Positions 1 through 60,855 of a stretch of 64,000 bases of DNA are shown here, piece after piece (positions within the stretch are counted from its first letter, which is position 1; the number at the start of each line of letters is the position of its first letter). The stretch is from contig CM097888.1 in the NCBI GenBank assembly GCA_044892525.1, positions 47,058,001 to 47,122,000 on the forward strand. The letters are read 5' to 3'. A program made the position numbers and the translations under genes. The DNA is from Schmidtea polychroa (taxonomy: Eukaryota). Under the pieces are notes generated by a model. It worked only from the letters and a program-made list of their open reading frames with translations. It had not been told where the DNA came from and made no database searches.

Positions 1-3000
1 GATGCAAGTGGATATGCAGCCGGAGCAATATTAGGACAACTCGACGAAGAAGGAAAAGAAAGAGTGATTGGATACTACAGTAGAACGTTTAAAAAGCACG
101 AGAAAAACTATTCCGTAACCGAGAGAGAAGCGTTAGCAATCATACAAGCAATTAAACACTTTCGATATTTACTATGGGGACACGAAATATGTATCACCAC
201 GGATCATCAACCATTAGTATGGCTTGGTCAACACAAAGAAGCTTCAAGTAGATTGATGCGATGGGCAATGCAGTTACAAGAATATTCACCGTTCATAAAA
301 TTCAAAGCGGGAAGAGCGAATGCCAATGCGGATTGTATGTCCAGATTTATCTTTCCAGATTTAGTAGATCACGAAATGCAACGAATATGTCTGATGGTAG
401 CAGAAGATTTAGATTTTTGCCAATTACGGAAAGACCAACAAGAGGATACAGAGTTGAAGCAAATCATTGAATATGTGAAAACAGGGAAAGCAGAGGTATA
501 TGAGAAAGATCAAAAATTGAAGGAGCATATGGATAAACATCGACATCGATATATTATCGAGAAAGATTGGTTATTGATAATGGATGGCGAGAAAAGACTG
601 ATGTGCATTCCCGAGAATAGACGTAAAGATCTACTAACACAATACCATGACGGAAGACTCGGAGGACATATGTCATCTAAAAAGACGTTGGCACGAATGA
701 AACAAAAATATTTTTGGCCTACATTGACCGAGGATGTAACGGAATGGGTGAAAAATTGCATAACTTGCGCAACCAGAAAAAACACGGGAACAAAATGGAA
801 GGCACCATTAAAGCCAATGCCAGTACCAGCAGAACCAATGACAATGATATCAATGGACGTAGTCGGTCCACTACCAGAATCAGATAGAGGAAATATATAT
901 ATATTGGTAATCACAGATTATTTGACAAAATTCCCCGAAGCATTCGCAATGGCAGATCAGAAAGCAAGAACAATCGCAAAAATATTAGTAGAGGAAATAT
1001 GTTGTCGATATGGAACGCCGAAACAAATACTGACGGATCAAGGAACGAATTTCATGAGCGAAATAATGAGCGAAGTCACCAACTACTTCAAGATCGCAAA
1101 ATTAAGAACATCACCGTACCATCCACAAACTAATGGTATGACAGAAAGATTCAATGGAACACTGATTCAAATGTTATCAAATTATGTCGATCGTCATCAA
1201 CGAGACTGGGATGAATATATAAAATTATGTCTAATGGCTTACAGAATGTCGATTCACGCGTCCACAAAGATGAGTCCGTTCAAGTTGATGTACGGCAGAG
1301 AATGCAATATGCCAATGGATTTAGAATATCAGCCACCGATATCACAATACATGGAAATAGACGATTATGTAACCAAGTTCAAGGAAAGAATGCAGGAAAT
1401 CTGGGAAACCGCAGGATTGAATATAAAATTTTATCAAGAAAGTTACAAAGAGTTACATGATAGAAAGAAAAACGTCAAACAGCATACGTTTCAAACAGGC
1501 GAATGGGTGATGATTGAAACACCAGAATTAATTCCAGGAACCACCAAAAAATTACAACGAAACGGTAAAGGGCCGTATGAGATTCTATTCGTCGGAGAAA
1601 CTAATGTAAGAGTACGATTAGTGAACAACCCTTTTACAAGACCAATATACGTAAATGTTGCACGATGTAAGCCAATTCCGAAAACCGCCACCAGTCAGCC
1701 GGAAGGACGTACACTAACGACAAGATCACAAACGTATAGAATAAACATGTTACAGCAAATAAACGAACCAACAGGTAATCGATTAGGGTTACAACCATCA
1801 GAAGCCGAGAAAATCATAAAGGAAGTAAAAGTTAAAATGCCCGGATGGGCAGAAGACAGATTAGATTTTGAGATATTGGGAGGTCTGCTAACAATGATCG
1901 AAAATTATGCAAACCGAGAAAGAACACACCCATTGCTCAGGGTAGTTAAAAGTCAATGGCCTATATTATTCACGATCACAGACCACTACGGAGACACACC
2001 CCTGCACAAGCTTTTAAAGGTGGGTAGTAACGAACAGATATTAGAAACAATTGAAGCATTTCGCGATTGTAACATTTCGACAGATCAAGAAAACAACCAA
2101 GGTTACACTCCACTAATGATAGCAGCCAATCGGGATAAAGCTAAAGATATTATCATCGCATTACTTGAAACTGGGTCAAGGATAACCACACAAGATCACA
2201 ACCAGAAAAATGCATTACATCATGCAATCGAAGGGAAAAGTACGGAAGCCTTCATAATCTTAGTAGATCTAATATCATACGAGGATAATAGAGAGATAGG
2301 AAACATGTATGACGGGCTATTAACTGCAATCAAAGAGAAATTAACAACAATTACTGGAATACTAATTGCATGGAGGAACCCGATAAAAAACGATTATATG
2401 GTAGATATAAACGAAACATTTACCAAAGGAGAAAATACCTTGATGAGAGAAGCGATGAGAGGACATCACCTATTCGAAATTCCAAATCAACTACTACAAC
2501 GAGGCATAAAATTCTCAAATCACAAAGACGAACAACTAATCAGAAAACGAATTACCAACTTCGAAAAAGCTATATCTCAATTTACCGATAAAGTACAAGT
2601 AAAATTTTGGGACACCGTGAGTGTTTTACATATGATGGAAACTATGAACAACATTCGAGAAAACTACCTAAGTATTATTCAAGTTCTAACGGCAGAGGAA
2701 CGCATTAACAGTTCGAACAAGAAAAAGATAAAAATGAAGAAAGTAAAAGCAAGAGAGTCTGAGGAACAAGTCGATCAACCAATAACCGATATAGCAACAA
2801 CAAGTAAACCAAAGATAATAAACTCCGACCAAGAGATAGTAGTACGTAAGGCTAAAGAAGTATTCTTTGAAGAAATGCAAGATCTATCCGATGAAGCGAT
2901 ACTAGCAAAAATAACCAAAACAGTACACACCTACGCAAGAGATCAGACCACAAATCTAGACATAGGAAAAATAAAAACATTTATACCACTAGCATTCACC

Positions 3001-4983
3001 TTACCAACAAAAGACTCAAGAACACCATTACAACAAGCCATTTTAGCAGCAAAAGAGAACAGAGCAATAACCATCATAAGAATCCTCAGAGACTTCGGAG
3101 AAGAATCTAATGCAAAAAACGAACAAGGGGAAACAGCAATGATGTATGCAGCCATAACAAATATACACCCGAAAACATTACATATACTACATCAATCAGG
3201 TTCGAGACTTGACGAAAGATCAAACGAAGGAAATTCTGCCATGGATTGGGCAACAATACAACCAAACTTGGAAATGATTAGATTCATTTGCAAAAATGCT
3301 ACAAGAACTGAGGTAGAAAATATCTGTAAAAACACGTCACAGTTCCAATGGAACACGATACGGATGAACTTAGAAGCCATGAAGTTGCTGCTAACATGGA
3401 GAATACCACAGAGCAATAAATATGCAATAAATATAAATGAGTTCTACGAAAACGGAGAAAATGCTATGGTTAAAAATACACTAACAAAAGGAGGAACTCC
3501 GAAAATCATAATGATCGTATTAAACAGAGAAGATCTCAAATTCACGCAGAATCTAAACGAACAAAAGCGAATCGGGAAACATCGTCGGATACAATTAAGA
3601 GAATTAGTGAAAGAATGGAATAGAAAGAGACATGTAGCAACAGGCAGAAAGGAGTTCGAACTCGAAGCAAAATTAGCAAGAAACAGAGTGCTAACGGCAT
3701 ACCGCAGATTGTTGAATGATATAAATGTCGAGGACGACATTTTAAACGATAGCGGGGGAGATAAAGACGATAAAGACGATAAAGACGACGATAATAATGA
3801 AAAAGGTCGAAACGGGAATAAAGAGAAAGAGAAATCAGAGGAGAATAATCAAGAAAATAACGACGCGAGTAGGAAAAAAGAGGAAAATAACCCGAGAAAC
3901 CGAATAAAGCAAGAAGAAAAGACGAATAGTGGAAAACAGAGGGTATGCCTACTTTTTACCAACAAAGAAATGGAGACAAATATGATGATAATGATACTCG
4001 TACTAACAATGGTGGAAATGATAACAGCCCAGGGAGGAATGAGAACGATAAAAGAAGTCAAAGAAACGGAAAATAAGGACAGCAAAGAGGAAGAACTAAA
4101 ACAAGAAAAGAAAAAACAAGTACAAGAGCAGCAATGGGATCTAAAAGAAGAATGGGATTTAAAAGAAAGGTGTATATTAGGAAGATGTATGTCTAGAGCT
4201 TATCAGAGACTAGTGTTAAAAAATGAAGATGCAGAACCAATAACGGAAGTAAGAATACAAGAAGCATACCGAAATCGAGAAGGAAAGAGAATAACGAAAG
4301 TCAAAGGGAAGGAGGTACACCTGGGAAAAGGAGGTGAGGTAGTGATAACGCAACTCCAGCCAAGAAAAGAACACAAAGTCTGCATCGCAAGATTAAGACC
4401 GGGTGAAGACTGTCTACAATATGTAATACAGCAACAACCTCCAAAAGAATACACAATATGCATCTGGAGAAAAGATACAGCGAGAGAATGTCGACGATAC
4501 CCTGGGAAAAGAGGGAAGAAAAGAAAAATCGATGATGAAAAAGATGAGCAAGGAAAACGCAAGAAAAACAGTGAGAAACATCAAGACAACTATGTATCCG
4601 AAGAGGAGATGGAGAAAATACAAAAAATGGCAAAGGAAGGTATGAACGAGGAAATAGCAAGAATACGAGGAATGATGAAAGGAAATGGCAAAGACGGTAA
4701 TCTAAAAAGCACAGAAGCAATATCAACAATAACGAGCAAGGAAAAAGCGGAAATTATAAGCATAAAACAGATGATGTGGATCAGCGGTATAATAATAACA
4801 GGGGCCTTTTTAATCATAACGGGGGGGACAATAAAAATAATCAAAGACAGACGACATCGCGGGGAATTAGAAATGACCAGAATAAGAAATTTTCAACATC
4901 GTGTAAAACGACCAAGTAATATCAAGCAGGAACAGTGGGTGGAGGCCTGGAATGCTCAGCGCCCTCCAAGCTCACGTATATAG
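1..4983 (+). CDS. pol: Pol polyprotein C-terminal part: RNase H - integrase - ankyrin modules - membrane-anchored tail (frame open from base 1)
   Basis: Frame 1 is open from 1 (DASGYAAGAILGQ...NYSVTEREALA...TDHQPL, RNase H). Integrase HHCC (YHDGRLGGH...CITC), D-D35-E (SMDVVGP, TDQGTNF, NGMTERFN) and GPY motif. Ankyrin motifs GDTPLH, GYTPLMIAA, KNALHHA, RTPLQQA, GETAMMYAA, GNSAMDWA. Hydrophobic segments at about 3982-4030 and 4771-4842. No stop until 4981. Confidence 0.95.
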   Translation, partial: DASGYAAGAILGQLDEEGKERVIGYYSRTFKKHEKNYSVTEREALAIIQAIKHFRYLLWGHEICITTDHQPLVWLGQHKEASSRLMRWAMQLQEYSPFIKFKAGRANANADCMSRFIFPDLVDHEMQRICLMVAEDLDFCQLRKDQQEDTELKQIIEYVKTGKAEVYEKDQKLKEHMDKHRHRYIIEKDWLLIMDGEKRLMCIPENRRKDLLTQYHDGRLGGHMSSKKTLARMKQKYFWPTLTEDVTEWVKNCITCATRKNTGTKWKAPLKPMPVPAEPMTMISMDVVGPLPESDRGNIYILVITDYLTKFPEAFAMADQKARTIAKILVEEICCRYGTPKQILTDQGTNFMSEIMSEVTNYFKIAKLRTSPYHPQTNGMTERFNGTLIQMLSNYVDRHQRDWDEYIKLCLMAYRMSIHASTKMSPFKLMYGRECNMPMDLEYQPPISQYMEIDDYVTKFKERMQEIWETAGLNIKFYQESYKELHDRKKNVKQHTFQTGEWVMIETPELIPGTTKKLQRNGKGPYEILFVGETNVRVRLVNNPFTRPIYVNVARCKPIPKTATSQPEGRTLTTRSQTYRINMLQQINEPTGNRLGLQPSEAEKIIKEVKVKMPGWAEDRLDFEILGGLLTMIENYANRERTHPLLRVVKSQWPILFTITDHYGDTPLHKLLKVGSNEQILETIEAFRDCNISTDQENNQGYTPLMIAANRDKAKDIIIALLETGSRITTQDHNQKNALHHAIEGKSTEAFIILVDLISYEDNREIGNMYDGLLTAIKEKLTTITGILIAWRNPIKNDYMVDINETFTKGENTLMREAMRGHHLFEIPNQLLQRGIKFSNHKDEQLIRKRITNFEKAISQFTDKVQVKFWDTVSVLHMMETMNNIRENYLSIIQVLTAEERINSSNKKKIKMKKVKARESEEQVDQPITDIATTSKPKIINSDQEIVVRKAKEVFFEEMQDLSDEAILAKITKTVHTYARDQTTNLDIGKIKTFIPLAFTLPTKDSRTPLQQAILAAKENRAITIIRILRDFGEESNAKNEQGETAMMYAAITNIHPKTLHILHQSGSRLDERSNEGNSAMDWATIQPNLEMIRFICKNATRTEVENICKNTSQFQWNTIRMNLEAMKLLLTWRIPQSNKYAININEFYENGENAMVKNTLTKGGTPKIIMIVLNREDLKFTQNLNEQKRIGKHRRIQLRELVKEWNRKRHVATGRKEFELEAKLARNRVLTAYRRLLNDINVEDDILNDSGGDKDDKDDKDDDNNEKGRNGNKEKEKSEENNQENNDASRKKEENNPRNRIKQEEKTNSGKQRVCLLFTNKEMETNMMIMILVLTMVEMITAQGGMRTIKEVKETENKDSKEEELKQEKKKQVQEQQWDLKEEWDLKERCILGRCMSRAYQRLVLKNEDAEPITEVRIQEAYRNREGKRITKVKGKEVHLGKGGEVVITQLQPRKEHKVCIARLRPGEDCLQYVIQQQPPKEYTICIWRKDTARECRRYPGKRGKKRKIDDEKDEQGKRKKNSEKHQDNYVSEEEMEKIQKMAKEGMNEEIARIRGMMKGNGKDGNLKSTEAISTITSKEKAEIISIKQMMWISGIIITGAFLIITGGTIKIIKDRRHRGELEMTRIRNFQHRVKRPSNIKQEQWVEAWNAQRPPSSRI

Positions 4984-5151
4984 AAAGGATTATGACTGTA
5001 TATAGATTGTAAAAAGTAAGTAGGAAATATTTATTTATATAACAATATTCTATATTTTTATATAAGCGCGGTATCAATAGTATATAATGATGGGGATAAT
5101 TAATATGAAAATAAAATTAGATAAGGATTGAAAAGTATATATAAATTAAGA

Positions 5152-5511
5152 ATGGAGCGAATAGGCGAGGAAGTAAACCACAGTACAACAACCGAGGAGA
5201 TGTGGAAACAACAATGTGCAATGTTAACTCAAGTGATTTCGAATTTACAGGAACAAGGACTCGCTGTACAAAGAAGCTTAGTCGAAAGTTTAAATAAAGG
5301 CTTCAATTATGTAAGAATAATCGAAGACCAACGAATGAAAATAGAACAAATGCAGCGAGAGATAGACCGAATATCACGATACAGCCAGGTGCAAGAAGAG
5401 GAGTTAATAAGAATCGCGGAAGAGATGGAGCGAGAGGAGATAGAAGACTGGTCAGAATGGTTAACCAGCAGGGAAGAGGGCGGACAAGAGGCCGACTCTT
5501 CCAGCCAATAA
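5152..5511 (+). CDS. Retroelement accessory ORF, about 119-aa coiled-coil protein of unknown function
   Basis: ATG at 5152 in an open frame with E/Q/R-rich heptad-like composition; same strand and base bias as neighbouring ORFs; AT-rich spacers on both sides. Confidence 0.7.
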   Translation: MERIGEEVNHSTTTEEMWKQQCAMLTQVISNLQEQGLAVQRSLVESLNKGFNYVRIIEDQRMKIEQMQREIDRISRYSQVQEEELIRIAEEMEREEIEDWSEWLTSREEGGQEADSSSQ

Positions 5512-5601
5512 ATATAACCTAAAATAGCAATGTAAATAAATGTAAATAAAAAACACGAAACTGTACCAGTAACGAATATATGTATATATATAATTATAGA
5601 A

Positions 5602-6990
5602 ATGGATAAGCGACAACGAGAAGAATTCAGAGAAATTGTTGAACAAATCAGAAAGTCCACCACAATTCGAATACACAACCATGTAACGTGTGGAATATGC
5701 AAGAGCTTATTAAGAGAACCTCACCAAACCAGATGTGGATGCAGAATGTGCAAAGAATGTATAGAGGAGATAATAAAGAAGGGACCACAATGGTGCCCAG
5801 TATGCAAAGAAACAATGATAACAAGTTTGGGAGATACAAACGAAGATAAAGCAGCTGTAAAAGATATGTTAAATGCAAACCTAGGATGTAAAAACACCCC
5901 ATGTAATTGGCGAGGAGTGATATGGGAAGTGAGGCAACATATGGAGCAATGTGAGTATAAAATCAGTCAATGCAAACGTTGCCAAGAAGAGATTAAAGTC
6001 AATGAAGAAGCAGAACATCAAAGTCGATGCGAAGAAAGACTGGAGAAATGCGAGTATTGCGGAGAAAACGACACCTGGAAGAAACTAATCAGTCAACATC
6101 ACAACATACAAGAGGAGAAAGTGTGCGCAGAATTCAGAGGAGAATGCCCCAACAAATGCGATAAACCCGGAGTAATAAAACTCGCTCAACATCTAAAAGA
6201 GTGTGAAAGAAAAAAGATAACGTGTGTGCTAGGAAAATGGGGATGTCAGAAACAATTACACCGAGGGGAATTACCCCAACATCTAGCAGAAAACGTATCA
6301 ACACACGCGGAAATATGGTCAACGGTATTACAGGAAAACGAAAGGAAAACCGAAAACTTAGAAAGAGAAATAGTCTCGCTAAAAGCGTTGGTAAAAGAAC
6401 TATTGGAAGAAAAGGAAGCATTTGAAGAGGCGAGAACAAGTACAAAGATACAGACAGATCTAGTAGAAACTAGCAACATTATGGTGAAAGAACTATATCA
6501 AAAAGTAAGCGAATTAAACCTCAACGAATTAATACCTACGGCTCCGTACATATGGAAAATAACGGGAGTAAAAGAGAAGATGCAGAGAGCGAGAAATGGA
6601 AAGGATACAACATTACTAAGTCCAGCATTCTACTCATGGAAAAACGGGTATAAAATGAAAATGAAAGCATACCCCAATGGGGATGGAAGTGCATACGGAA
6701 CGCATTTCTCAGTATTCTTCTTGATGTGCAAAGGGCCATACGACGAGTTAATAGAATGGCCATTCAAAGCAAAAATAGACCTCGCAATGATGAACTATCA
6801 AAGTATACACGAACAGAGTTTCCATACAGCGGGAAACCTCGTATGTTACCAAAGGCCCTTGGAAGAAGAAGGACCAGCAACCGGAGCACCAAATTTCATC
6901 CTACAGCGGAAAGTAGAAGACATGACGAGAAACGACACTATATACATAAAAATAGCGGTGAGGCGAGACGGGAAGAGTAGGACTGAGTAG
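5602..6990 (+). CDS. TRAF: Full-length intronless TRAF-family protein (RING, TRAF zinc fingers, coiled coil, TRAF-C/MATH), 462 aa
   Basis: RING CGIC...P..TRCGCRMCKEC...CPVC; repeated C-x-C/H TRAF fingers; coiled coil ENERKTENLEREIVSLKALV; MATH hallmarks YIWKI, SPAFYS..GYKM..KAYPNGDG...GTHFSVFF..KGPYDELIEWPF. Paralog (TRAF2/3/5-like) cannot be resolved by eye. Confidence 0.95.
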   Translation: MDKRQREEFREIVEQIRKSTTIRIHNHVTCGICKSLLREPHQTRCGCRMCKECIEEIIKKGPQWCPVCKETMITSLGDTNEDKAAVKDMLNANLGCKNTPCNWRGVIWEVRQHMEQCEYKISQCKRCQEEIKVNEEAEHQSRCEERLEKCEYCGENDTWKKLISQHHNIQEEKVCAEFRGECPNKCDKPGVIKLAQHLKECERKKITCVLGKWGCQKQLHRGELPQHLAENVSTHAEIWSTVLQENERKTENLEREIVSLKALVKELLEEKEAFEEARTSTKIQTDLVETSNIMVKELYQKVSELNLNELIPTAPYIWKITGVKEKMQRARNGKDTTLLSPAFYSWKNGYKMKMKAYPNGDGSAYGTHFSVFFLMCKGPYDELIEWPFKAKIDLAMMNYQSIHEQSFHTAGNLVCYQRPLEEEGPATGAPNFILQRKVEDMTRNDTIYIKIAVRRDGKSRTE

Positions 6991-7209
6991 AGAGACGAAT
7001 AATTTTGTATATACTAATTGTAAATATCGGCGTATATATCCAGTAAAATATTATATAGTAGTGTAGAAAATTCCCCCCAAATCTACCAAAGGTAAACTTA
7101 AGCGGAAAACTCCTAAAACAACTCCTATAACGAATTATAAAAATAAATAAATAATAAACCAGATATAAGCGTACAACGTTGAGTTAATGATATCGTTATT
7201 TAGACAAAG

Positions 7210-8031
7210 ATGACACAAAAAGGAACTGAAGCCCCAAACCACGAAACCAAAGTCAATAAAATCCATAAGGGAAAATGGGTCAAAGTAATGTTACAATTGA
7301 CGAACCAGACCCACAACCATCTCGAAGAGGCCAGGGAATACGAGAATAACAAATATCAGTGGTTAGTAAACAATTTAAGAGCCGAAGCAGAAGCATGCAA
7401 AAGAGCCTCTAAGTGGGCATCATTGGAAAACACTCGCCAAGAAGCGCACAGCCACTATTTAAAACAGTTAGTGCAGGAAGCACGGAAACGATTGACGGAC
7501 GAAAACACAAAACGAGAAGCAGAAAAACAAAAGGAAGGAAGGAAAATGAATCACCTATTGGCAGAAGCCCGAAACTGGAAGCGGCAGAACAAAGAGATGA
7601 AAAAAGAAATGAAAGAATTGCCTATGAGATTAGAATACGAAAGCGAACAAGGCAAATGGGAGGAAAATCTGGTCATAAGAGAAGAACTGAAACGGCTCAG
7701 AAAGATTGCGGCCCGAAGCCAAACATGGCAGACCAAAGCCATGGAATTTGAAAGACATCTAGCCATGAAAATCTCCATAAGGGAGCACGAGAATGCCGCA
7801 ATGGAAGAACTGATACTTCAACAGTCAGGACGACTCGTGGAACTGGTGAATAAGGTCGCAGAACTAGAACGAGATGTCAACGGATACCAAGGAGCTCTGG
7901 AGCAGAGAAATATGGTACTGGCGGGGAAAAACAAAAAGTTAGAAAACGAAAGGAAAATGTATAACGAAAATCTTAAAAATCTGGAGATAGAGATCAAGAA
8001 ATGGGAAAACGGCGAAAAGCGGAAGAGCTAG
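7210..8031 (+). CDS. Retroelement accessory ORF, 273-aa coiled-coil protein (possibly continues into 8001-8246 across a frameshift)
   Basis: Long open frame with E/K/R/L heptad composition; preceded by ttttag|acaaagATG. Confidence 0.75.
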   Translation: MTQKGTEAPNHETKVNKIHKGKWVKVMLQLTNQTHNHLEEAREYENNKYQWLVNNLRAEAEACKRASKWASLENTRQEAHSHYLKQLVQEARKRLTDENTKREAEKQKEGRKMNHLLAEARNWKRQNKEMKKEMKELPMRLEYESEQGKWEENLVIREELKRLRKIAARSQTWQTKAMEFERHLAMKISIREHENAAMEELILQQSGRLVELVNKVAELERDVNGYQGALEQRNMVLAGKNKKLENERKMYNENLKNLEIEIKKWENGEKRKS

Positions 8032-8246
8032 AAAAACAGATAGAGGTAAGAGACGATGAAACCAGGTATCTAACATACCTGTTGGACGAGGAACTTAACG
8101 TGTCAAGAGCACTAAGAGACGAAGTGCAAGAACTTAGAGCGCAGATTCCCCGGTACTACATCCCATTTGATCCCATCGCACTCCAATTACAAACGTCAGT
8201 AGAAAGCGATGAGGGATATGTAGGCCAGGAAGAGACCTTTGTATAA
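8001..8246 (+). CDS. Short overlapping ORF, likely the frameshifted C-terminus of the 7210 ORF
   Basis: Overlaps the previous ORF by 31 nt in another frame and continues the coiled-coil pattern (AEELEKQIEVRDDETRYL); no spacer or acceptor in front of it. Confidence 0.5.
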   Translation: MGKRRKAEELEKQIEVRDDETRYLTYLLDEELNVSRALRDEVQELRAQIPRYYIPFDPIALQLQTSVESDEGYVGQEETFV

Positions 8247-8421
8247 AGATAAAAGGAAAGATAAAAAATATAAAAATCGGGACCTGTATCCCAACCAAAA
8301 AAAATTAATGGTACAGTAAAAGTATGAAAGGGACTGTAACCCTGATTATAAAATAACATATAAATGTATAAGTATAAGCCGCACTGTAGCGCAATTATTA
8401 ATTATGTATATATTATAGAAA

Positions 8422-9123
8422 ATGAACACTGAAAACGGACAACCCAGCATAACATCTATAATTGAGTTAGAAGAGGGAGAAATTGAAGTTGATGAAGTGG
8501 AGAGGAAGAAAACTATCAAGGAAGAATTACAAGAAGAGAGACAGGAAAACGAAAGATTAGTTGAAAGATGGAGAGATAATCGAAAAATGATTAAAGTATT
8601 GAAAAGAGAATATATCTTGTTAGAAGGAGTAAAGAAAGAAGTAGAGGAGGAAAACGAATGGCTTCACGAGCAAAGAAAGCGAGGGAGAAATTGGGAAAAG
8701 ATCGCGGAAGAATTATGGCAGGAGAGGGCCAGTCGAAAGGCCGACGAAGTGATTAGTGACTATTGGAAAACCGAGGCACGGAAACACCAGGAAAGCCTGA
8801 AAGAGTTACAACTCCAACTACACCAAAAACAGAAAGAATGTGAGATAATGAGACGAATGAACAACAAATACCAGGAAATAGACAACGAAGAGGACGGGGA
8901 AAGGGAAAATGATTTTCTACAGATAATGAACCATAGAAACCTCGAAAGAGCAACACAAGAAATAAAAGCACTAAAAGGAAAAATAATAACCCTAAGGCAA
9001 CAGTTAGACGAAAGAGACAAACAATTAAAAGTACTACCCGAATTGAGAAAACGAGTAATAAAAGCAGAAACGAGAGTGATGAGAACATCCGAGAAAACCC
9101 GTAAAAAGAAAACCCGGCAATAA
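8422..9123 (+). CDS. Retroelement accessory ORF, 233-aa coiled-coil protein with basic C-terminus
   Basis: Open frame, highly charged heptad composition, ends KTRKKKTRQ; preceded by ttatag|aaaATG. Confidence 0.75.
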   Translation: MNTENGQPSITSIIELEEGEIEVDEVERKKTIKEELQEERQENERLVERWRDNRKMIKVLKREYILLEGVKKEVEEENEWLHEQRKRGRNWEKIAEELWQERASRKADEVISDYWKTEARKHQESLKELQLQLHQKQKECEIMRRMNNKYQEIDNEEDGERENDFLQIMNHRNLERATQEIKALKGKIITLRQQLDERDKQLKVLPELRKRVIKAETRVMRTSEKTRKKKTRQ

Positions 9124-9178
9124 TTAAAGATGAATGATCAATGTAAATAATTGTAAATAAAAATTTTCGTATAGTAGT

Positions 9179-9805
9179 ATGTGGTTCGGAGCAACCTTGG
9201 TGACAATAATGATGATAGCGATAAACGGGATACCCATGTGGCAACCAATCCCAACACTCTGGGAGAATCCCGAGAAACAGCAAAACTCGTTAACCAAACT
9301 AAAAAGCGCAAGAAAGCTCTGCAACAACATCCCGAAACAATGCTGGAACAAAGCCGTCTGGCAAAAACTTCAAATGCAACTCCACCTACAAACCCAAAAA
9401 ATCGAACAGCTCGAAACTCTCTTACAAGAACAAACCACCCAACAATCCTTGAAGGAAATCATCATGAAGAAGGAAGTAAAAGAAAGCCAAGTCTTACTCT
9501 ATACTACCATCAGTGAAACCCTTATCATCTGCGCACTAGTCATCTGGAAAGCGTATGATATTCATCGAACATGGAGAAGAAACCAGTCACTATCCGAAAA
9601 ACACGAAAGAAAGAACCCACGATCGAAAAATAAATATAAACGAGCAGTACATTTTCAACAACCAAACCCACCCGACCAAATGCAACAAAATCTATCTCCT
9701 GACCAAATGCCTGTTACAATCCAGCTCCCCACGATAACAACTTCAACCAGCCATCCGACCCAGAATTCAACTAACCAAGACATTCCGAACCTTGAGATCA
9801 TGTGA
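9179..9805 (+). CDS. Retroelement accessory ORF, 208-aa predicted membrane protein (N-terminal signal/TM, coiled coil, second TM, P/Q/T-rich tail)
   Basis: Hydrophobic MWFGATLVTIMMIAING; heptad LQMQLHLQTQKIEQLETLLQE; hydrophobic VLLYTTISETLIICALVIW followed by basic residues. Confidence 0.7.
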   Translation: MWFGATLVTIMMIAINGIPMWQPIPTLWENPEKQQNSLTKLKSARKLCNNIPKQCWNKAVWQKLQMQLHLQTQKIEQLETLLQEQTTQQSLKEIIMKKEVKESQVLLYTTISETLIICALVIWKAYDIHRTWRRNQSLSEKHERKNPRSKNKYKRAVHFQQPNPPDQMQQNLSPDQMPVTIQLPTITTSTSHPTQNSTNQDIPNLEIM

Positions 9806-10530
9806 CATCGACCATTCATAAACTTTGTGTGTATAAATCCGGTCACCTAAAGTGGCCACTGCTTGCTTATATTTGTCCTTTTATCTGTTTAATTAAAGTA
9901 TTATTTAGTTATTTTAATTTTATGTTTGTGTGAATGTTGACCGTGAAATTAGTTGTTATGCCGAAAAAAGGTATGAGTTAAACGTATGATATTATATGAA
10001 TTGCGGGGCGCAATTTTAACGGGCCCCGGAGTGATTTGTTGGGCTAAAATGCGGAGTGGAGAAAACTGGAGCGAATAGAAAATAAACCTCGAAAGATAAA
10101 TGAAATAAGATAAAAATATCAAGTACCATAAAAATCTCACTAGTAAATAGGAAGGAACAATAAAATAACAATAAAAGAATAAGAATAAGTAAACAAACTA
10201 AATAAAATCCAATAAACCCCTTAAGATTTAGAAATAAAACGGGTTAAGGTACACAGCGGATAAAATAGAAATAGAATAAGTAAAAAAGTAAAAACAAATA
10301 AACGAGGAATTTAAGAAAATAAATAAAAATAAAACCATCTTAAGTCTAATTAAAACAAAAAATGATATTGCAATAAAATAACAATAAGTCCACAGGAAAA
10401 ATAGGAGAAAAATAAGAAAAATAAATAAAATAATAATAAGAGATAAGTCAGGTCATTAAAAATTTAAAATACGATGATAAAAACATAAAAATAATAATAA
10501 ATAGTAAAAATACAAGCAGGTAGCGTCCTG

Positions 10531-10580
10531 ATTGGACGAAAAATACTATATATGTAACGTGAAAAATTAGACGACAACCA
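10531..10580 (+). promoter_or_regulatory. LTR core promoter: CCAAT box (ATTGG), TATA box, predicted initiator
   Basis: ATTGG 10531-10535, TATATAT 10547-10553, Inr-like CCACTTT about 33 nt downstream; same layout in the solo LTR. Confidence 0.65.
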
Positions 10581-12930
10581 CTTTTAATTTTTCACGATTA
10601 CAGGTAAAATTTTAGAAAAGAACTTAGAACCACTTTTAATTTTTCACGATTACAGAGCATAGACTTCAGATATTTCACCGAATTCAGGACTAGAATCGCA
10701 AACGCCAATTCCAGAGATTTTCAGAATTTAACTTTAATTTAGTCGAGACCATTTTAAATTCGATTTCGTTCCAGTTTTTGAAACTACCGGTAGGCCGATT
10801 GATTTATATGTATTAGTAATTTATTAATGATGAAAAACAAAACTCATTTCGTAAAATAAATTTATTGAAATACAAATGGCCTTTTCTTCATGGTGCCGGC
10901 GACTGTACCATCTGAGAACTCCCAGTATGATGTGGATGAGTTGGAAATGTACCACGGTAGAGAACACAACAGTGGGAAGGTTGACCTTCATAAGAAATCC
11001 CGAAGATGCTGAAAATGAGAATGTGATATTTGCAGAGAAGGATATTTATCATACGAGAAATCCACCAAGGGTATGATGAGGCTGCGGTTGTGTGGAATGA
11101 ATAGCATCATACTTGGAGTCCAAATGATAGGGTCGCCGGGTGAGCTTTATTGATTCATTTATTTTCATTGATTTATTTATTTTTTGATTCATTTACTGCT
11201 ATTCGAGTCATTCATTCCTTTTATTATTCATAAATTGTATATTAAATGTTGATTTTGTGAAAGACGAGTCAAACGGTCCCTCACGACGATGCAAGAACGG
11301 CGGCAGAGATGATTGCCTTCTTGGGTGGGTCATGAGGGGTGAGGAGACTCCGCAGGTGGAATACTGTTGGAAGTGGAATTTCTCACATCGAGCGCGATCT
11401 GATAGAGGATCTTTCGTTTTCTTTTATGAAGTCACGCTGAAGTTTCAGAATAAATAATGCAAATTTCCAAAGTCGGAGACAATTTTTCGGATTGAGATCA
11501 GTAGTTCGTTGTTGTTAGGAAAATTTGCTTTTCCATCGAATATTGATAGATGTCTGAGTAGGGATGGGCGATGAATTGTTAGAGTTTTCACTGGAAGATC
11601 TGCTAAGCACTTAAAAATTGAACCCCGAGAGGTACATTGCAGGGACATTAGCGAGTAAACCCATTCATTGACTAATTTAGACTTTAGCTTGACATTGAAT
11701 ATCTGATAAAGTTTGGTTTGACGTTGACAGCGGCTCGTCTAAAATGGGAAAGTAAACAAATTTTTTGATAAGGAAATAAATCACTTGCCGTGAGTCCGAG
11801 TGAAGATATCAATAGCGATAGGAGAATCATTAGTTGCCCATGGCCAGATAAATTTCCGACGGGGAAAATCGGCTGATAATTTGATAAAGTCATCGAACGA
11901 GTTGATTGAGAAGGCGGCAGTCGATCGAGTGTATTGAGTGGTCTTATCGTGAGTCGACCTAATATCGAAAATCCAGAATATAGAGTAATTTTTATCTACT
12001 GAATCCGCAAGTCACCCACACAATCGAATTTCTTGAGTTTTGGACACACCAACTGAGTACCCGTCTCAACTAGAGCATCTCTCTACAACTCTACCTCTAT
12101 TAATCGCTCGCCCACATGTACACATGCATCACACTCAGATTAGGTCACAGTGCACATGTGGATATCATCATTACCTAATCATAGGGAGAGAGTCGTACAC
12201 TTGAAACTGCTGGTAGACCACTGGATTGCGTCAGAGAACATGGCGATGCGACGAGAAATTTTTTTTTTGTCAGTGTGCAAGTCGCTAGTTAAATGCACCA
12301 ACATGCATCGTGACGAACCCGTCGATAGTTGATGGCATAGATAGACAATCAAATGAACACATAACTGCGCCCAATTTAAGCGTCACTATGACGATGTTTA
12401 TGGCGTTAAATTGAAATAACTAAGTTATGAGCCATGATAAAAATTTAAGCGAGAGTATTATGATTTTCTTACAAACCCGAGGGGCCTACATACAAGACGG
12501 GGTGTCCCGGTAATTGCCGACTTTCCGTTCATCATACAGCACGCGTAGAATTTGATGACGTAGCAGCAAAATGAGTAAAATATAATGGTTAAAATGTAAC
12601 AACGATAATTAAGATAATAGCATTCATAGTAACGAATTAACAGTCATGCAGTAGTTAAAAATAGCCAAACCCATAAAGTAAACCTAAAAGCTAGCATAAT
12701 GAAGTGTCTTCATGAATCCCGTTTTCTTCTCATAAAGTAGTAATGATTTCATGGGTTAGTTTAGATGTTTGAGGTTGCATGAAGGTGAATGTTTGTCGAC
12801 GGGGTAGATTGGTAGGCCACTCTTTGATAACTTGGTCGGGGAGATTCTTAAACTTCATTTTTCCGAAAACATGAATAATGCCCCAGTGAATTTTTTTTAA
12901 TCTAACAATAAAAATTTCTTAACAATTCAG

Positions 12931-13695
12931 ATGAATACCTCAACCAGTTCCGGGAAAACCCTCAGACCTTGCTTTTCCTGTGCTGATAAAAATGCCGATA
13001 TCGCACAGCTCCACTTGTACATAGGGGAATTGAAGAAGAGAATTGACCTCTATGAGGGAACGTGGTTCTCCCCACCACAAATGAAGGAGGAGAAGAGCAA
13101 GATTCTGCGTCTGGAGCACTGCCGTGACAGTCTCCTGGAAGAAAGCAGGTGCCAGAGGTTAACCATAAAGGCCCAATCAGAGGCACTGCACAAGGTGTAT
13201 TCCGAATCAGAACTAGCGAAGCGAGTTCGCGAGTACCCGATACAAGATGGGACTAACGTGTTCCCAATGCACCACAAATTAGCTGAAACCTCATCAATAT
13301 CCAGTTGTAAAGGGCATGGCCCACAAATGCCGCCAATTCCCGCCCCAGTCCTTTCGGGCGATCGACCTATGGCTGGCGGTTCATCGGACCCTATCTTGGC
13401 TCCAGTACTCGTGCCACACCTCCTTCAGTCCCCAGCAGAAGCTACACTTCCCCATCGAAAGCGTAAGCGGCTGACGCGTTCTGAAAAAAATCAGAAGCGT
13501 AGAAATGCCATGGCCGCGCTCGAAGCATCGTTGTCCGCAGCCCAATCGACTATCAAGGAAATTACAGTTACCCATTCCATTCCTACAAAGGAAGTATTCC
13601 GGGTAGTTCCGGCCGACAGTATCAAATTCCTCGAGGATCGCCGGTTGCCCGTTGATATCGACGAGATGCTCGCAGAAGGAGAAGCATTCTCGTAG
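12931..13695 (+). CDS. LTR-encoded 254-aa protein (CxxC, coiled coil, Pro-rich linker, basic NLS-like patch, acidic C-terminus)
   Basis: Intact in both LTR copies; 95 of the first 103 aa identical while most differences are synonymous; ttcag directly before the ATG and a CTAAC branch-like motif at 12902. Confidence 0.85.
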   Translation: MNTSTSSGKTLRPCFSCADKNADIAQLHLYIGELKKRIDLYEGTWFSPPQMKEEKSKILRLEHCRDSLLEESRCQRLTIKAQSEALHKVYSESELAKRVREYPIQDGTNVFPMHHKLAETSSISSCKGHGPQMPPIPAPVLSGDRPMAGGSSDPILAPVLVPHLLQSPAEATLPHRKRKRLTRSEKNQKRRNAMAALEASLSAAQSTIKEITVTHSIPTKEVFRVVPADSIKFLEDRRLPVDIDEMLAEGEAFS

Positions 13696-14575
13696 CAAAT
13701 TCTCTCTCGGGTCTCGATTCCCTGCTATTACGAACGAACTTGAAGAAGCGACGTTATCTCGTGACTAATCTTTAATGTTTTGCATTTACTTAAACAATGC
13801 TGAATGTAATTTGATGTTCCGTTCTAATATAACTGTTCGATTTTCTTTGATTGTGTTAATTGTATGTATGATTTGCTACGGTTGAATTGCATGAGAGAAG
13901 GATCACGAAAATATAGTAGAAACTCAAATGTCGTACCTTTGGACCAGGGTCGGACCGAATGATGCGTAAAGAATGGGTAAGACCTTCTAAGGCACCGTAG
14001 AACCCGAACCGAGAAAGGGTTAGGAGTAGTCCTAAGGCAGGGGCTCACCTGCTAACTCTTTCCAACCCGTGTGAGCAGCACCAACGTGGAAACACCACCA
14101 CGGGCTCATACGTGGGAATATGCGAATGATCATTTGGAGTGTGTGAGGGAATGGTCTGAGCAGAATGATGATACCTGATGTGTATGATAATCATACCTAT
14201 ATATTTTCTTTTCCCCCCACATACGCCAACAAATAATTTGTTGCATAATATATATAAAACAATTTTTTATTATTTAATTTTTATATATTCTTAGTAATAT
14301 CTCTATGAAAATTTTTTCTTAATAATAATTTTAATTAATAAATTTTCTATTTCAGTTTTATTAATCATTAACTTTTCCTAGACGTTTTCCTGGCACTTTG
14401 GTAAAAATATTAGTTAAAATTATTCGATGAAAATACTGATTTTCAATATTAATGAAATTTGAAAGATCAAAATTTTAAAAAATAACTGAAATAAATAGAA
14501 AAACATCTACAAAAATTCAAACTTTATTATCGGTTTAATGTTTTGTTTAACACAATCAATATAATATCTCGATCA

Positions 14576-15175
14576 ATGTTGAAAATAGGATTATTCAAAG
14601 TTTTAAGTAAAATTTGCTCCAATCAATCAAGTAATTAGTGATTTTAAACTTTCTAAATTGATTTTTTTAATTATGAAGCAAAAATAACAATTTTGAGATG
14701 TATGAGCAGTGATCACCATCATTATAACTATCTTGAGTTCGAACCTGAAACAGTACGTAAAATAACATTACGAGTGAGTGATGCAGTGGCTCCTAAACCA
14801 ATTGGTAAAAACCATAAATTTTACACCTATCTCCGTGGTTTTGGAGCTTTATTTGTTTCACTTATTTTCTTTGGTACCACAGGAATGATTTGGATCGAAA
14901 ACTATGGTTTATGTTACGAAATTTTCCATGATCAGAAATATGAAAATTCTGAAAAGGGCCTCGAATTTTATGAGGTTGGTAAAAATTATTTTCATAAGGA
15001 AAGTGATGAACGGGCAGCGGAAATTATGGCTGAAAGAAGAAAAAATTATAGGGAAACTAAAATTATTCCAGGCGTTCAATTGGGAAAAAGTTTAGAAGGT
15101 GATTGGCCAATTCAAGAGTACGAAAACACTGATGAAGCAATATGTTGGATAGATCGCAAATTGGCGGGAAAATAG
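14576..15175 (+). CDS. Host two-exon gene (14576-14630, 14679-15175), 183 aa, probable mitochondrial single-pass membrane protein; family unassigned
   Basis: A 48-nt GT-AG intron joins the frames: MLKIGLFKVLSKICSNQSTKITILRCMSSDHHH (basic, acid-free presequence with an R-C-M-S-S cleavage-like motif); one TM segment GFGALFVSLIFFGTTGMIWI. Confidence 0.7.
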
Positions 15176-25507: not shown

Positions 25508-28500
25508 ATTTATCTATTTTATAAAATATATTAATTATATAAATCAATTAAATTTTTTTGTATTGCAAAATAATTCGATTTTTGCATAAAAATATAAATA
25601 ATTTCAAATAACTTTTTTTTAAATTTCAAATATTTAAAATGGCATTTCATGACTTATATTGCTAGATTTGTCCGACAGTTTATGACTAATCAATGGTAAT
25701 CTTATATTTTCAGTTATATTATCAGTTCCTACATACGCTATTTGGTTAGCTAGGCAAAATGCTCATAATGTGAGGTGCTTTTGATAGGATACGTCGAAAT
25801 CCCATTTTAAGTCTTGTATCATAAAGAGCATTATGTAGATATTCTCTTCTTCATAGGAATTATTTGACAAGTCACATATCATGAATTTCGTCAATTATAG
25901 AATTTCAATTTTATTGAAAAATAAATTAAGTCAGATTTTGGAACAAGTTTCGGATTTTGAAAATTTACATTAAAGAAACTAAAGTTACATTACATTTCGT
26001 TTTGCAATTTTTCCTTTTTATTTCAATTCGAGCATTAATATTATTAAGTTAGTTAAAATTTCATTAACCCTTTCAATGCCGGTGACGTTCTATACTTTTT
26101 TATGAAAATTTAAATACAACATAATTTAAACAAAAATCTATTTTTTTATATTTCATTTATTTTCATTATGACAAAGGATTTTAGGTCTTTTTTCATACGG
26201 GTTGAAAAGATCAAGTTATTAAACAAGAAAATAAAAGTAGAGAAGTGTAAATATTATAATTATATTCTATAAATATTATAAATTTGTCTACTTTTAATAA
26301 AATTCTAGTTACAACAGAAAATCTTTAAAAAACCAATCAGTTGTTACGATTCCAAAGATGAATGGAATTATAAATAATATTCAAAGTACCTGCATAATTC
26401 CTAAATTAACTACTGCCAAGTTATTAATGAGTCTCAGTCCAGAAATGGTAATTCTTCCAGCCAGCTGCTGAAGGGCTGAAAAAAATGTAAATAATGATCA
26501 TCCAAATAATGATGTAGGGTGGTGTAAAAAATATTATACATTTCCTTGACAGTTGAGATTATAGTTTCAATGAACATATACTCACATAGTCAGATTATTT
26601 AGGGAGTAGACGCGTAAAATAAAATTTTTTAAGCTCGAATTTTCAAATAACTTATTTCATGGCCTCTGAATCTGGGATGTGCAACAAGAGTAAAAATATT
26701 TCTCTATATATAAAAAAGCTAGGGGTCCCCTCCATCCGAATTTTACTTTTTAATTTTTTTTAAATTTTTTTTTGTCAAATAAATAAAATAATTTTTTATT
26801 AGTTTGGCTGTTTTGACGCAAGTCGTGTTAGATATTTAACGGGTTTACGTCTAATCCATACCTGAACATCATTAACCCCACGTTCTAACGGGGTTGGTGA
26901 AGCGAAGCGAACGGGGCAGAGCCCCTAGTATATATAAAAATGATAGATAAAGAAAATTAATATTTAATTATATTTAAAGTTTGAAGAAATTTTAGTTGAA
27001 GGTTGTTACGATTCATTATGATTACACCCATCATCATCACATGAAAAGATAGGATAGAAATGAAGCTGAAAACGATCACATTGACTGACTAGATGGATTT
27101 AATGGAATTCAAAATGAAAGAGCATAATTCAACAGATCTATAAATACCGTATTTATTTTCTTATAACACACAGGCTTTAATATTATCGTTCAATACTTTT
27201 TTAATTTTTAAAAACACTCAACTTTTAAACCCAACATGGTGGGTAAGAAGAATGCAACTGGGCGCATTTCTACAAAAGGATTCCACACAGTAGAAGTAAA
27301 ACATATGAGAACTGCATATACGATACAATTTAAAAAGAATGTGTTGGATTTCTATGATGTAAATGGTGCGTCACAGACAGTTACCAAATTTTGGCCTGAT
27401 CTAAAGTCATCATCGCCAGCTCGTGAAGCCAAAAGACAGTTAATATATCAATGGAGAAAAAATAAAGACCGAATAACAAAACTTGGGAATATGAATAGGG
27501 TCAAGAAATTGAAAAAGATCCGACCACTAGGAACTTCCTCGAGTCTTTCATCTGAAGTCGAAGACGAACTTATTTTCTGGGTCCGAACCCTGCGCCAAAA
27601 TGGTGTCCCCGTAACCGACAGTATACTTCGTACTAAAGCTCGCCTATCGTGCAGACAAACCGATGTTAATAATTTCTTAGCAAGCACTGGGTGGCTAAAA
27701 ACCTTTAAGAAAAAATATGGCTTGTCACTCAGAGCCAAATCTCATCAAGGACAAACATCCATAGTCCTTCCAAATCCGGTAGCCACTCAGTTTGCATTAG
27801 ATGTCCGACAAAAAATGATTGAATTAAATGTAGATTGTGTTTGGAATGCCGACCAAACGGCTGTTAATTATGAAACAATCCCCGGAAAAACCTTAGATAA
27901 AATAGGTTCCAAGACAATATTCATACGAACAGCTGGGAAAGAAAAAGAGAGGATATCAGTATTATTGCTGGGATCTTCTAATGGACAGAAAAAACCACCT
28001 TTTGTAATATTTAACCCTTTCGCACCGACTTTCCGCTAATGACACTATGCTAAATTTATATATTGGAACTTGTTAATATTGACCTAAATATATTCTCATT
28101 TTTGTAATCGTGGCGATTCTGAATATCCTAGAAAGTCCTGGGATAATAAGTCCCAATAGGCTTTTATGGACCATTCAAAATATCCCAGTAGGATCATGAT
28201 GAAAGTTTCTGGGACGTATTGTCTTAATAGGGGCGAAAGGGTTAAGGGTAAACAATCAGTTGTGGAGGCATCATCGTTGCAGAATAGAATTAATCAACAT
28301 GGATTTCGTAGTTGTGTCTGGAAAAAAATACAGGAGATCAATAAAACCAGCACGACTCAAATATATTGCAACCAAAATGGCTGGTTTACAAGCGATATGA
28401 TGGTTATCTGGCTTTATCATAATTTTTCCGAAAATGTGGAGAAGCCAAAGATTTTATTATTGGATGACTTTACAGCACACTGGACAAGCGATGTTTTAGC

Positions 28501-55352: not shown

Positions 55353-56150
55353 TCAGCCACTCGATTCTTCTTTCATTCGTTTCTTGTTGTGAATGTAGTT
55401 CGACTCGATGAGGCGATAGAAATCTGACGATTTTATATGGGCTATTGTATTGCTTACCATCCTTGTGCCTGTTCTGTGGCTCTTTACATACGAGTACCTC
55501 TTAATCCACTTTGAAAACACGAGGTCCCTCTTTGTCTTATCCATAGCTCTCATAGTGTCTGCGACTTTACTCGAGTTAAATCTCGCGTTTTCGGTTCTTT
55601 CGCTTCTTGATATCTCGGCTTGTTTCAGGTTAGAGTGTATGTTAACACTTCGTCCATAAATTATCTCAAATGGTGATAAACCTGTAGCACTTTTTCGACT
55701 GCTATTTATAGTGAACTCTATTCTTGGTAGAAGTTCATGCCAGTTTCTCTCTTCAAATCGACCTACCAATGCTGCTGTAATAAGATCTCTTATCGTTCGT
55801 ATGGCTCGTTCGGCTAAACCATTTGATTGGTGCTGGTAAGGTGAGCTGAATTACTGTTTGATTCCAAGTTTCTGTACTTCTGTTTTAGGAAATTCCCTTC
55901 GAAATTTCGGCCTCTATCTGTTAAAATGCTCTTCGGTTTTCCAAATCGATAGATCCAACTATTAAGTATTGTTTTGAAAATTGTCCCTTAGTCTTGCTTT
56001 GTGATTTCAGTTAAAGATATCAGTTTGCTAAAACGGTACACCATTACTACCATATATTTTTATGGCGTTTATTTTCATGTAAGCCACATCTATAACAATC
56101 TGTTCTAGGAATTTAGAGCTATATCTTAGGAATAAATGTTTTCTTGGTTC
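55353..56150 (-). pseudogene. Integrase core of the small Gypsy element (frameshifted), downstream of the solo LTR
   Basis: FLEQIVIDVAYM, LTDRGRNFE, SSPYQHQSNGLAERAIRTIRD, LPRIEFTINS...TGLSPFEIIYG. Confidence 0.88.
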
Positions 56151-56672
56151 TGTTGGCGTATGTGGGGAAGAGAAAGATATGCACGTGTAACCTTCACACA
56201 TACAAGGCGTCATCGTTCCACTCAGGCACTCCCCCTACATACCCCAGATGATCAAATGCATATTCCCACGTATGAGCCCGTGGTGATGTTCCACGTTGGT
56301 GCTGCTCACACGGGTCGGAAAAGGTTAGCAGGTGAGCCCCTGCCTTAAGACTACTCCTAACCCTGTCTCGGTTCGGGTTCCATGGCGCCGTAGAAGGTCT
56401 TACCCGTTCCTCTGCACATCATTCGGTCCTTCCCTGGTCCAAGGGGACGACCCTGTATTGCTACCTAAATCCGATATCGTCCTATTGTTCACTTTTAATC
56501 CCATATCATGCATACCAGAAACAATCACCGAGAGACAATTAAAATTATATTACACCCACAACAATAACTACATTTATAATAAGAAAAGTGACTGTCACAA
56601 AATAAATGTTCAATATTCACAAATACTCAGGTCCGCTTTCGAATCTTGCAGAATCAAGGCAGTGGAAATCGG

Positions 56673-59799: not shown

Positions 59800-59853
59800 A
59801 GAATGATACTCTACAGATTTTTGTCGCTCTTTATATATTATTTTCTGTCCAAT
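59800..59853 (-). promoter_or_regulatory. Solo-LTR core promoter (CCAAT box, TATATAAAG, Inr-like TCATTC)
   Basis: ATTGG 59853-59849, TATA 59837-59829, TCATTC about 31 nt downstream on the minus strand. Confidence 0.7.
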
Positions 59854-60345
59854 CAGGACGCGACTCGTTTGTATTTTTACTATTTATTATTATTTTTATG
59901 TTTTTATCATCGTATATTAAATTTTTTAATGGCTTGGCTTATTCTTATTATTATTTTATTTATTTTTTCTTATTTTTATTATTTCTCTTCTATTTTCCTG
60001 CGGGCTCATTGTTACTTTATTGTAATATTATTTTTTGTTTTAATTAGACTTAAAATGGTTTTTATTTTTTATTTATTTCTTAAATTTCTCGTTTATTTGT
60101 TGTCACTTTTTTACTTATTCTATTTCTATTTTATCCGTTGTGTGTTTTAACTCGTTTTATTTCTAAATCTTAAGGGATTTATTGGGTTTTATTCAGTTTG
60201 TTTTACCTATTCTTATTCTCTTATTGATTTTTTATCGTTCCTTTCTATTTACTAGTGAGATTTTTTATATTTTTATCTTATTTATTTTTCGAGGTTTACT
60301 TTTCTATTCGCTCCAGTTTTCTCCACTCTGAAATTTAGCCCAACA

Positions 60346-60851: not shown

Positions 60852-60855
60852 TGTA

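Follow-up and report, generated by a model that had tools for sequence, protein, structure and literature searches.

A 30.5-kb Burro-type retroelement of Schmidtea polychroa with a selected accessory gene cassette and a candidate regenerating leader intron

The stretch of DNA analysed here (the window) comprises 64,000 nucleotides of the AT-rich, 781-Mb genome of Schmidtea polychroa (C4:47058001-47122000; assembly GCA_044892525.1). Positions 1-14231 of the window are the 3′ half of a 30.5-kb Ty3/Gypsy long terminal repeat (LTR) retroelement, the rest of which extends upstream. It is a real, young and recently inserted element of the Burro type, which bears an envelope gene and is maintained by selection. 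Alongside a giant polyprotein it encodes a set of accessory genes, and the reading that we favour, and hold to be fairly probable, is that these selected genes would be expressed from a spliced leader and would keep the host cell alive and quiet whilst the element replicates. A wider version is put forward more tentatively, with somewhat less than even confidence: Burro elements would be the analogues of complex retroviruses within Ty3/Gypsy, in which a single capped leader of 25 nt serves, by splicing, seven accessory genes, a captured TRAF–IAP-like survival module among them; the leader intron would be rebuilt at each reverse transcription through overwriting of its 3′ end by exon 1, and some of the TRAF/MATH expansion reported for planarians would consist of retroelement cargo.

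The 3′ LTR (10037-14231; this and all other features of the element lie on the plus strand unless stated) is 4,195 bp long, in agreement with the 4.2 kb of an initial annotation made from the sequence, and is bounded by TG...CA; its partner lies 26,318 bp upstream, which bears out the expectation that the element would exceed 20 kb once a 5′ LTR was added. The pair differs at two sites (one substitution and one homopolymer indel). The anticipated target-site duplication (TSD) AATA was found on both flanks, the right copy (14232-14235) matching the four bases left of the 5′ LTR. Seven bases past the 5′ LTR is an 18-nt primer site, complementary at 18/18 positions to the 3′ end (with CCA) of a host tRNA-Pro(TGG). 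The paired TG...CA LTRs, the TSD and the tRNA primer site are those of a Ty3/Gypsy LTR element, as is the Pfam domain order of protease, reverse transcriptase, RNase H and integrase (PR-RT-RH-IN) with gag upstream. There are no Ns within 1-14300. Co-oriented open reading frames (ORFs) are found at 1-4983, 5152-5511, 5602-6990, 7210-8031/8001-8246, 8422-9123, 9179-9805 and, inside the LTR, 12931-13695. More than 8 kb of intact, intronless non-retroviral coding sequence had been claimed between integrase and LTR; the co-orientation and positions of the ORFs stand, and the remainder needs correction: about 7.4 kb of a span of about 8.3 kb is coding, some 3.3 kb of that (the ankyrin blocks and a membrane tail) is in frame with gag-env-pol and forms no separate gene, and one gene is frameshifted in this copy. 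An array of imperfect repeats of 30-60 bp is present in the element leader, between a RING ORF and gag (upstream piece L001:6460-6890). The primer tRNA-Pro gene itself has 1,571 matches in the genome, including a long tandem array with a 475-bp period (C1:130.90 Mb).

The polyprotein is encoded by a single open frame of 4,811 codons (4,626 aa counted from the first methionine), in the order gag with CCHC knuckles, env, protease, reverse transcriptase, RNase H, integrase, two ankyrin blocks and a membrane-anchored tail. The env region, in frame after gag and upstream of the protease, matches a Monjiviricetes-type, chuvirus-like fusion glycoprotein (PF24664, E 6e-48). The 3′ third of the frame (1-4983) encodes RNase H, integrase and the two ankyrin blocks, all identified with Pfam, followed by a predicted signal-like segment, a cysteine-containing ectodomain and a transmembrane helix. 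R-I-N-M-M-like motifs stand at the module borders in subfamily A (that of the window element), in a related subfamily B and in a Burro1-type family of the same genome: after capsid, after nucleocapsid, before env, before and after the protease, between RNase H and integrase, after integrase and before the membrane tail. The core motif, defined only after inspection of the sequences, occurs five times against 0.6 expected, both in A (2/2,000 shuffles) and in the Burro1-type family (0/2,000). On balance, the element protease would cut the polyprotein at these repeated sites; given such motifs at the module borders, the ankyrin blocks and the membrane tail are likely to be released as separate proteins.

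Other parts of the polyprotein gave fainter signals. A region upstream of env matches the BCL2 family (PF00452) with E values of 0.015-0.04, below the Pfam cut-off, in 4/5 members, with Bcl-xL at E ~1-2; its predicted model (predicted local distance difference test, pLDDT, 71) had no Foldseek match at E 0.001 and generic helical matches only with VIA. A ubiquitin-like segment has a weak match only (E 0.15), there is no dUTPase match among the matches listed, and searching the PDB with single sequences from the BCL2-like, ubiquitin-like and env regions returned nothing useful. With Pfam, no MATH domain was matched in the pieces of the polyprotein ORF and no BIR domain in any scanned ORF of the window element. 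The predicted fold of the C-terminal ectodomain, which may be FN3-like, was dropped as unusable (pLDDT 36). Upstream of its first methionine, the gag frame stays open and conserved over about 100 codons (76-80% aa identity and a ratio of non-synonymous to synonymous substitution rates, dN/dS, of 0.16-0.36 against B; L001:7548-8102), and the point at which this conservation sets in has an ACG in good context and a donor-like/acceptor-like pair, both likewise conserved. A donor-like GTAAG at 13977, near the LTR end, is kept in A, in a solo LTR of the window and in two B copies despite differing flanks; it was considered as the supplier of a gag ATG and ruled out, that ATG being missing in the solo LTR and in subfamily B.

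The accessory genes begin upstream of gag with a 159-aa ORF for an IAP-type RING protein and continue downstream of pol, where the TRAF, coiled-coil, membrane and LTR genes named in the initial annotation could all be recognized. Directly after the polyprotein lies an ORF of 119 aa with no assigned family (5152-5511; acceptor-like AG at 5149-5150), which is 64% identical in amino acids to that of subfamily B, with synonymous sites saturated, and 32% identical to ORF151 of the Burro1-type family. It is followed by a full-length TRAF gene of 462 aa (5602-6990; AG at 5598-5599), with RING and MATH domains above the Pfam cut-offs and the entire architecture of a TRAF, namely RING, Cys/His zinc-finger region, coiled coil and C-terminal MATH. 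The coiled-coil-like gene at 7210-8246 (AG at 7202-7203) is 345 aa long in other copies and 30% identical to a 532-aa ORF of the Burro1-type family; here it is split into 273 + 81 aa by a frameshift near 8,000-8,030 that separates the window copy from all 14 other copies, 12 of which have a single 345-aa ORF (one is broken elsewhere and one was not located by motif). A second coiled-coil-like ORF, cc233 (233 aa, 8422-9123; AG at 8417-8418), is strongly constrained (dN/dS 0.08-0.12) and weakly matches ORF255 of the Burro1-type family. The tm208 gene (208 aa, 9179-9805; AG at 9173-9174) encodes a predicted type I membrane protein, with an N-terminal hydrophobic segment and an internal transmembrane segment by hydropathy, and is the fastest-evolving of the set (dN/dS 0.34-0.49; 22-26% aa identity between subfamilies). 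The last gene, of 254 aa, lies within the LTR (12931-13695; AG directly before the ATG) and has a basic C-terminal half; no Pfam family was matched, and the best Atlas value, 0.84, was uninformative. It is 73% identical, with synonymous sites saturated, to the LTR ORF of the solo LTR at 56151-60345. In the contigs of two sequencing runs, position 5501 is joined to 9141, so that related DNA exists without TRAF and both coiled-coil genes. In one copy (C1:210.02 Mb) the pol frame reads through into the TRAF gene without a shift of frame, which may be one way in which accessory genes are turned into domains of the polyprotein.

The cassette is not a peculiarity of the window copy. The 40 best LTR matches in the genome held 15 other LTR pairs, of which 14, picked as intact pairs, were fetched (one with 38.8-kb spacing was left out); all 14 are full-length copies with 4-bp TSDs and 0-5 mismatches between their LTRs, and all 14 carry the accessory cassette. 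A query with the MATH domain gave 150 scored matches from 1,468 candidates, all at 72-100% identity, which sets the number of A/B MATH copies at 150 or more. The group at 72% identity is subfamily B, and the same cassette was found in 9/9 B loci read. Pooled dN/dS values, which are star comparisons against the window copy and not independent of one another, were 0.01 for env (the most constrained region), 0.04 for gag, 0.04 for PR-RT, 0.08 for cc233, 0.13 for RING, 0.17 for TRAF (0.11-0.17 across estimates), 0.19 for the LTR ORF and 0.34 for tm208. Distinct single-base codon variants were also counted among 13 copies, and judged against about 20% synonymous sites with no correction for transitions: the synonymous to non-synonymous counts were 32:14 for TRAF (19% synonymous sites), 32:15 and 19:10 for the ankyrin blocks, 20:13 for the tail, 29:15 for cc233, 35:38 for the LTR ORF, 15:29 for tm208 and, without significance, 3:6 for the 119-aa ORF. 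Between A and B, synonymous sites are saturated and the proteins remain 46-86% identical except for tm208 (22%) and the LTR ORF (39%); TRAF is 71% identical despite this saturation, with the RING zinc ligands kept. Five of the seven accessory ORFs (RING, 119-aa, TRAF, 345-aa and cc233) align in the same order with the Burro1-type family. By these sequence comparisons, purifying selection maintains the cassette genes. In 5/14 copies the RING allele is a divergent one (dS 0.7; L001:5390-5869), and four of these show about 5% divergence in the remaining sequence, a pattern that points to recombination between subfamilies.

Giant elements of more than 30 kb, named Burro, were reportedly found in Schmidtea mediterranea by Grohme and co-workers in 2018, and the kinship with them that the initial annotation had suspected is upheld by design, cargo and gene order. 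The window element resembles what is described of Burro/GYPSM1 (PMC6431247) in its size (30.5 kb, against >30 kb), its multi-kb LTRs (here 4.2 kb), a single ORF of about 4,800-4,900 codons with gag-CCHC, env between gag and pol, PR-RT-RH-IN and ankyrins, MATH/TRAF and coiled-coil cargo, accessory ORFs and tandem repeats in the leader. Unlike in Burro1/GYPSM1 as described there, neither a MATH domain in ORF1 nor a BIR gene was found in it, and it has an ORF inside its LTR; its TRAF stands downstream of pol as a full-length gene of its own, whereas that of the D. tigrina element is described as upstream (PMC6431247). A counterpart is also present in the same genome: five cassettes of the Burro1-type family were read, with MATH in a 4,791-codon ORF1, a full TRAF downstream and a BIR-RING gene (392-aa ORF), and this family thus matches the Burro1 domain list. 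It shares with the window element the same primer binding site, 77% identity in RNase H/integrase and 55% in env-PR-RT, the cassette order, the downstream full TRAF and an AG before each ATG, and differs in the MATH inside ORF1, the BIR-RING IAP gene and the lack of a leader duplicate. The assignment to Burro rests on design and on this in-genome family; the window element may correspond to Burro-2, -3 or -4, and the published supplements on these may already show the cassette.

The classes of cargo, and with them most of the claim of a giant element bearing ankyrins and TRAF, are not new. AIR1, Smc, MATH_TRAF_C, BIR, ankyrin, BCL2-like, SUMO-like and dUTPase-like motifs and an in-frame env are in print for Burro/GYPSM1, together with the observation that accessory ORFs can alternate with polyprotein domains and the proposal that Burro meddles with apoptosis and ubiquitination (PMC6431247). 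What is added here is the selection data, the conserved order of the cassette, the scale of element-borne TRAF and a sequence-level case for a spliced leader with a regenerated intron. Errantiviruses of the GAG-ENV-POL type with an env resembling glycoprotein B of herpes simplex virus (HSV gB) are known from Platyhelminthes, Nematoda and Bryozoa; they share the position of env between gag and pol, the window env being a Monjiviricetes/chuvirus-like match (PF24664), and differ in that no accessory cassette was met with in their description; Burro, ankyrin and splicing do not occur in the main text of that study (PMC13524379). Elsewhere, Burro1 was found derepressed after piwi-2 RNA interference (RNAi) and no rescue was obtained by Burro1 RNAi (PMC8532177), ankyrin cargo has been noted in a planarian nidovirus (PMC6211748), and one further study, as far as it was available, names Burro and no more (PMC11410931).

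The solved structures closest in sequence to the TRAF of the element are TRAF3 and TRAF2 (E ~1e-27); as in mammalian TRAF2/TRAF3 it combines RING, zinc fingers, coiled coil and MATH, a likeness known here from sequence, and it differs in having Cys for the usual His in the RING, as do some planarian host TRAFs. A homologue search returned animal TRAFs at 23-29% identity only. In a MATH tree of 53 rows, drawn from 69 domain matches (60 distinct) with family A thinned to two rows and the window's own MATH dropped as a duplicate, 12 rows from other animals are set apart from every row of this genome (100/99). The Burro rows all fall into a single group among planarian-type TRAFs (94/74, not firm; the 'host' labels come from locus context and not all were verified), and within it the accessory TRAFs of A/B are sister to those of the Burro1-type family (95/84). 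This fits, without proving, one old capture from a planarian-type TRAF. Among 150 scored matches listed in a Pfam MATH search, about 56 appeared host-like, many clustered on C2, and about 94 had the frame lengths of the second Burro family, as counted by hand from frame lengths and look; a genuine host TRAF/MATH cluster also exists in this genome.

In mammals, TRAF and cIAP form a complex. By analogy, the element TRAF and the IAP-type RING protein encoded upstream of gag would, with roughly even chances, act as a TRAF–IAP-like adaptor/ligase on host death or stress signalling, and modulation of NF-κB/TNF/death signalling by the cassette is plausible; that the accessory genes would keep the host cell alive and quiet during replication is likely. 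Planarian TRAF-like proteins are reported to regulate cell survival (PMC7586133).

Two other views of the cargo have to be weighed against this one. The initial annotation had itself named chance capture, misassembly or dN/dS near 1 as the ways in which its proposal might fail. The frameshifted gene of the window copy is what a passive passenger might be expected to display; the cassette is nevertheless present in 14/14 A copies, 9/9 B loci and, by homology, five Burro1-type cassettes, with at least 150 A/B MATH copies and dN/dS far below 1 (about 0.1-0.2 for TRAF), and we regard chance capture, a passive passenger or misassembly as refuted by the copy and dN/dS evidence and, as a probability, negligible. 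It is less easy to dismiss, though still improbable, that TRAF and RING serve the particle cycle of the element (ubiquitin-dependent assembly, budding or trafficking of an Env-bearing particle) and not host signalling: env is more constrained than any other region, the element encodes another two predicted membrane proteins, and the RING zinc ligands are kept. A role of this sort sits poorly with the retention of the entire TRAF architecture including MATH, with the addition of a BIR-RING IAP in the Burro1-type sister family and with the related DNA in which TRAF is missing. Action on host signalling remains our preferred explanation of the cassette.

A distinct line of evidence concerns how so many genes might be expressed. 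Before each accessory ATG there is an AT-rich tract devoid of AG and then an AG at a distance of 0-9 nt, and the LTR contains what appears to be a matching donor. A predicted promoter with a reverse CCAAT (ATTGG) and a TATA box (10531-10554) has the same layout in all A and B LTR types examined, and is followed, 29 nt after the start of the TATA box, by a predicted first exon or common leader without ATG, X1 (10576-10603), which ends at an AG|GTAAA donor. The predicted GT-AG intron is 52 nt long (10604-10655) and closes with 28 nt (10628-10655, X2) that are identical to X1. The first AATAAA past the intron (10855-10860), a candidate polyadenylation signal, would set the end of R near 10,880; in 6/6 LTRs checked, AATAAA/ATTAAA occurs 199-282 nt past X2, one of them having an additional earlier signal at 135. 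Across 21 LTR types, X1 is 24-28 nt long, ATG-free and ends at AG|GTAA, and it starts 28-31 nt after the TATA box in 20/21. It is followed by an AT-rich, unduplicated spacer of 16-25 nt and by X2, which ends in AG, giving an intron, and a repeat period, of 47-53 nt. Nine unrelated X sequences occur among the 21 types, and X1 equals X2 exactly in 18 and with one mismatch in three; two copy-specific variants are found in both X1 and X2. The intron is precisely absent in 5/55 LTRs of the exact pattern, including both LTRs of one element. On the minus strand at 10850-11450, short blocks with conserved antisense peptide motifs are shared by the window LTR and the solo LTR, and AATAAA is found near 10,855 on either strand; the region might hold a spliced antisense gene.

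Complex retroviruses such as foamy viruses, human T-cell and bovine leukaemia viruses (HTLV/BLV) and HIV splice from a major donor near the cap and carry accessory genes. The window element is like them in the arrangement proposed here, one leader joined to many acceptors, and in having accessory genes near or in the LTR, and differs in its Ty3/Gypsy polymerase. Transcription would in all likelihood start at X1, 30 nt after the TATA box. The X1 donor would then probably be spliced in cis to the acceptor before each accessory ATG, as from the major donor in R of complex retroviruses. The packaged RNA would have the intron of about 50 nt spliced out at its 5′ end, strong-stop DNA would end in a copy of X1, and this copy would pair in register with X2 at the 3′ end of the RNA during the first strand transfer, a sequence of events that we judge probable; the pairing would copy the intron back and overwrite X2 with X1 in each cycle. 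The leader architecture thus suggests both that the genes share a common spliced leader and that strand transfer regenerates the intron. We know of no case, and found none in the literature, of a first intron that ends in a copy of exon 1, nor did we find a description of Burro splicing or of a duplicated leader.

The principal rival explanation treats the cassette as an operon whose transcript is resolved through trans-splicing of the host spliced leader (SL), with the LTR donor serving the small intron only. SL trans-splicing occurs in planarians, flatworm operon candidates have spacers of up to 300 nt, and SL pieces have been seen in LTR elements (PMC12582326). Flatworm SLs, however, end in AUG according to the same source, and with AG-to-ATG distances of 1, 2 or 4 being common, that AUG would be out of frame at most acceptors here; moreover, the element has its own ATG-free leader with a conserved donor, and we regard the operon as unlikely. 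Less likely again is that X1 and X2 are an ordinary tandem duplication unrelated to splicing and kept alike by gene conversion or slippage. Short direct repeats are readily deleted and converted and intron-less variants do exist, but nine different sequences share a repeat start 28-31 nt past the TATA box (20/21 types) and an end at AG|GT, and the spacer of 16-25 nt is unduplicated within a constant period of 47-53 nt.

The acceptors were examined with two rules. Under a strict nearest-AG rule, 19/30 accessory starts pass (4/7 in A and 5/7 in the Burro1-type family), compared with 10/149 non-coding element ATGs, 64/711 host ATGs and 1/11 host TRAF rows. Under a looser rule, for which 7 of the 12 B starts were used, 6/7 pass in each of three families against 17/149 element and 88/714 host ATGs. 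A number of points weigh against cis-splicing from a regenerating leader and against the host-directed role. The looser rule was set after the misses had been seen, and some B and C starts are the methionine matching the A start and not the first methionine, so that the acceptor test is partly circular. No spliced RNA junction was seen; a genome pattern search for fossils of leader-to-ORF junctions gave one match, which proved to be an LTR variant and not a junction, and contigs of sequencing runs (their RNA origin is a guess) had no leader-acceptor joint or SL-like loose end among the matches listed, which is uninformative either way. The intron-less LTRs are explicable by deletion between direct repeats, two loci appear to carry the intron in one LTR only, and in the Burro1-type LTR a donor and an intron of 45 nt are present while the duplicate is missing. 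The cassette spacers, of 55-220 nt, fall within the 300-nt operon criterion for flatworm SL trans-splicing (PMC12582326). Finally, the choice of copies by intact LTR pairs favours intact ORFs, and the BCL2-like module is a sub-threshold match only.

Elsewhere in the window, the solo LTR of a related subfamily (56151-60345, minus strand) has the TSD GAAC, with its LTR ORF intact and an X1/X2 pair of its own; it is nested in a different, decayed Gypsy element (55353-62288), gag, protease and integrase pieces of which flank it. A 157-aa ORF without Pfam match lies just right of the window element (14702-15175), and remnants resembling DNA transposases, judged by eye, are present at 27212-28873 and 63363-63872.

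Taken at these strengths, the results turn the published Burro domain list into a testable model of expression and replication for the largest known LTR elements, whose cargo is selected and not debris. If true, this would be an unusual answer to a general problem: a retroelement intron surviving reverse transcription by means of a duplicate of exon 1. A TRAF/MATH expansion has been described in planarians, with no Burro origin mentioned in the parts of either report available here (PMC6109357, PMC7586133). With hundreds of copies of elements carrying an intact TRAF, part of that expansion would be retroelement cargo, and transcriptome counts of planarian TRAFs and RNAi designs (PMC6109357, PMC7586133) may therefore mix host and element genes.

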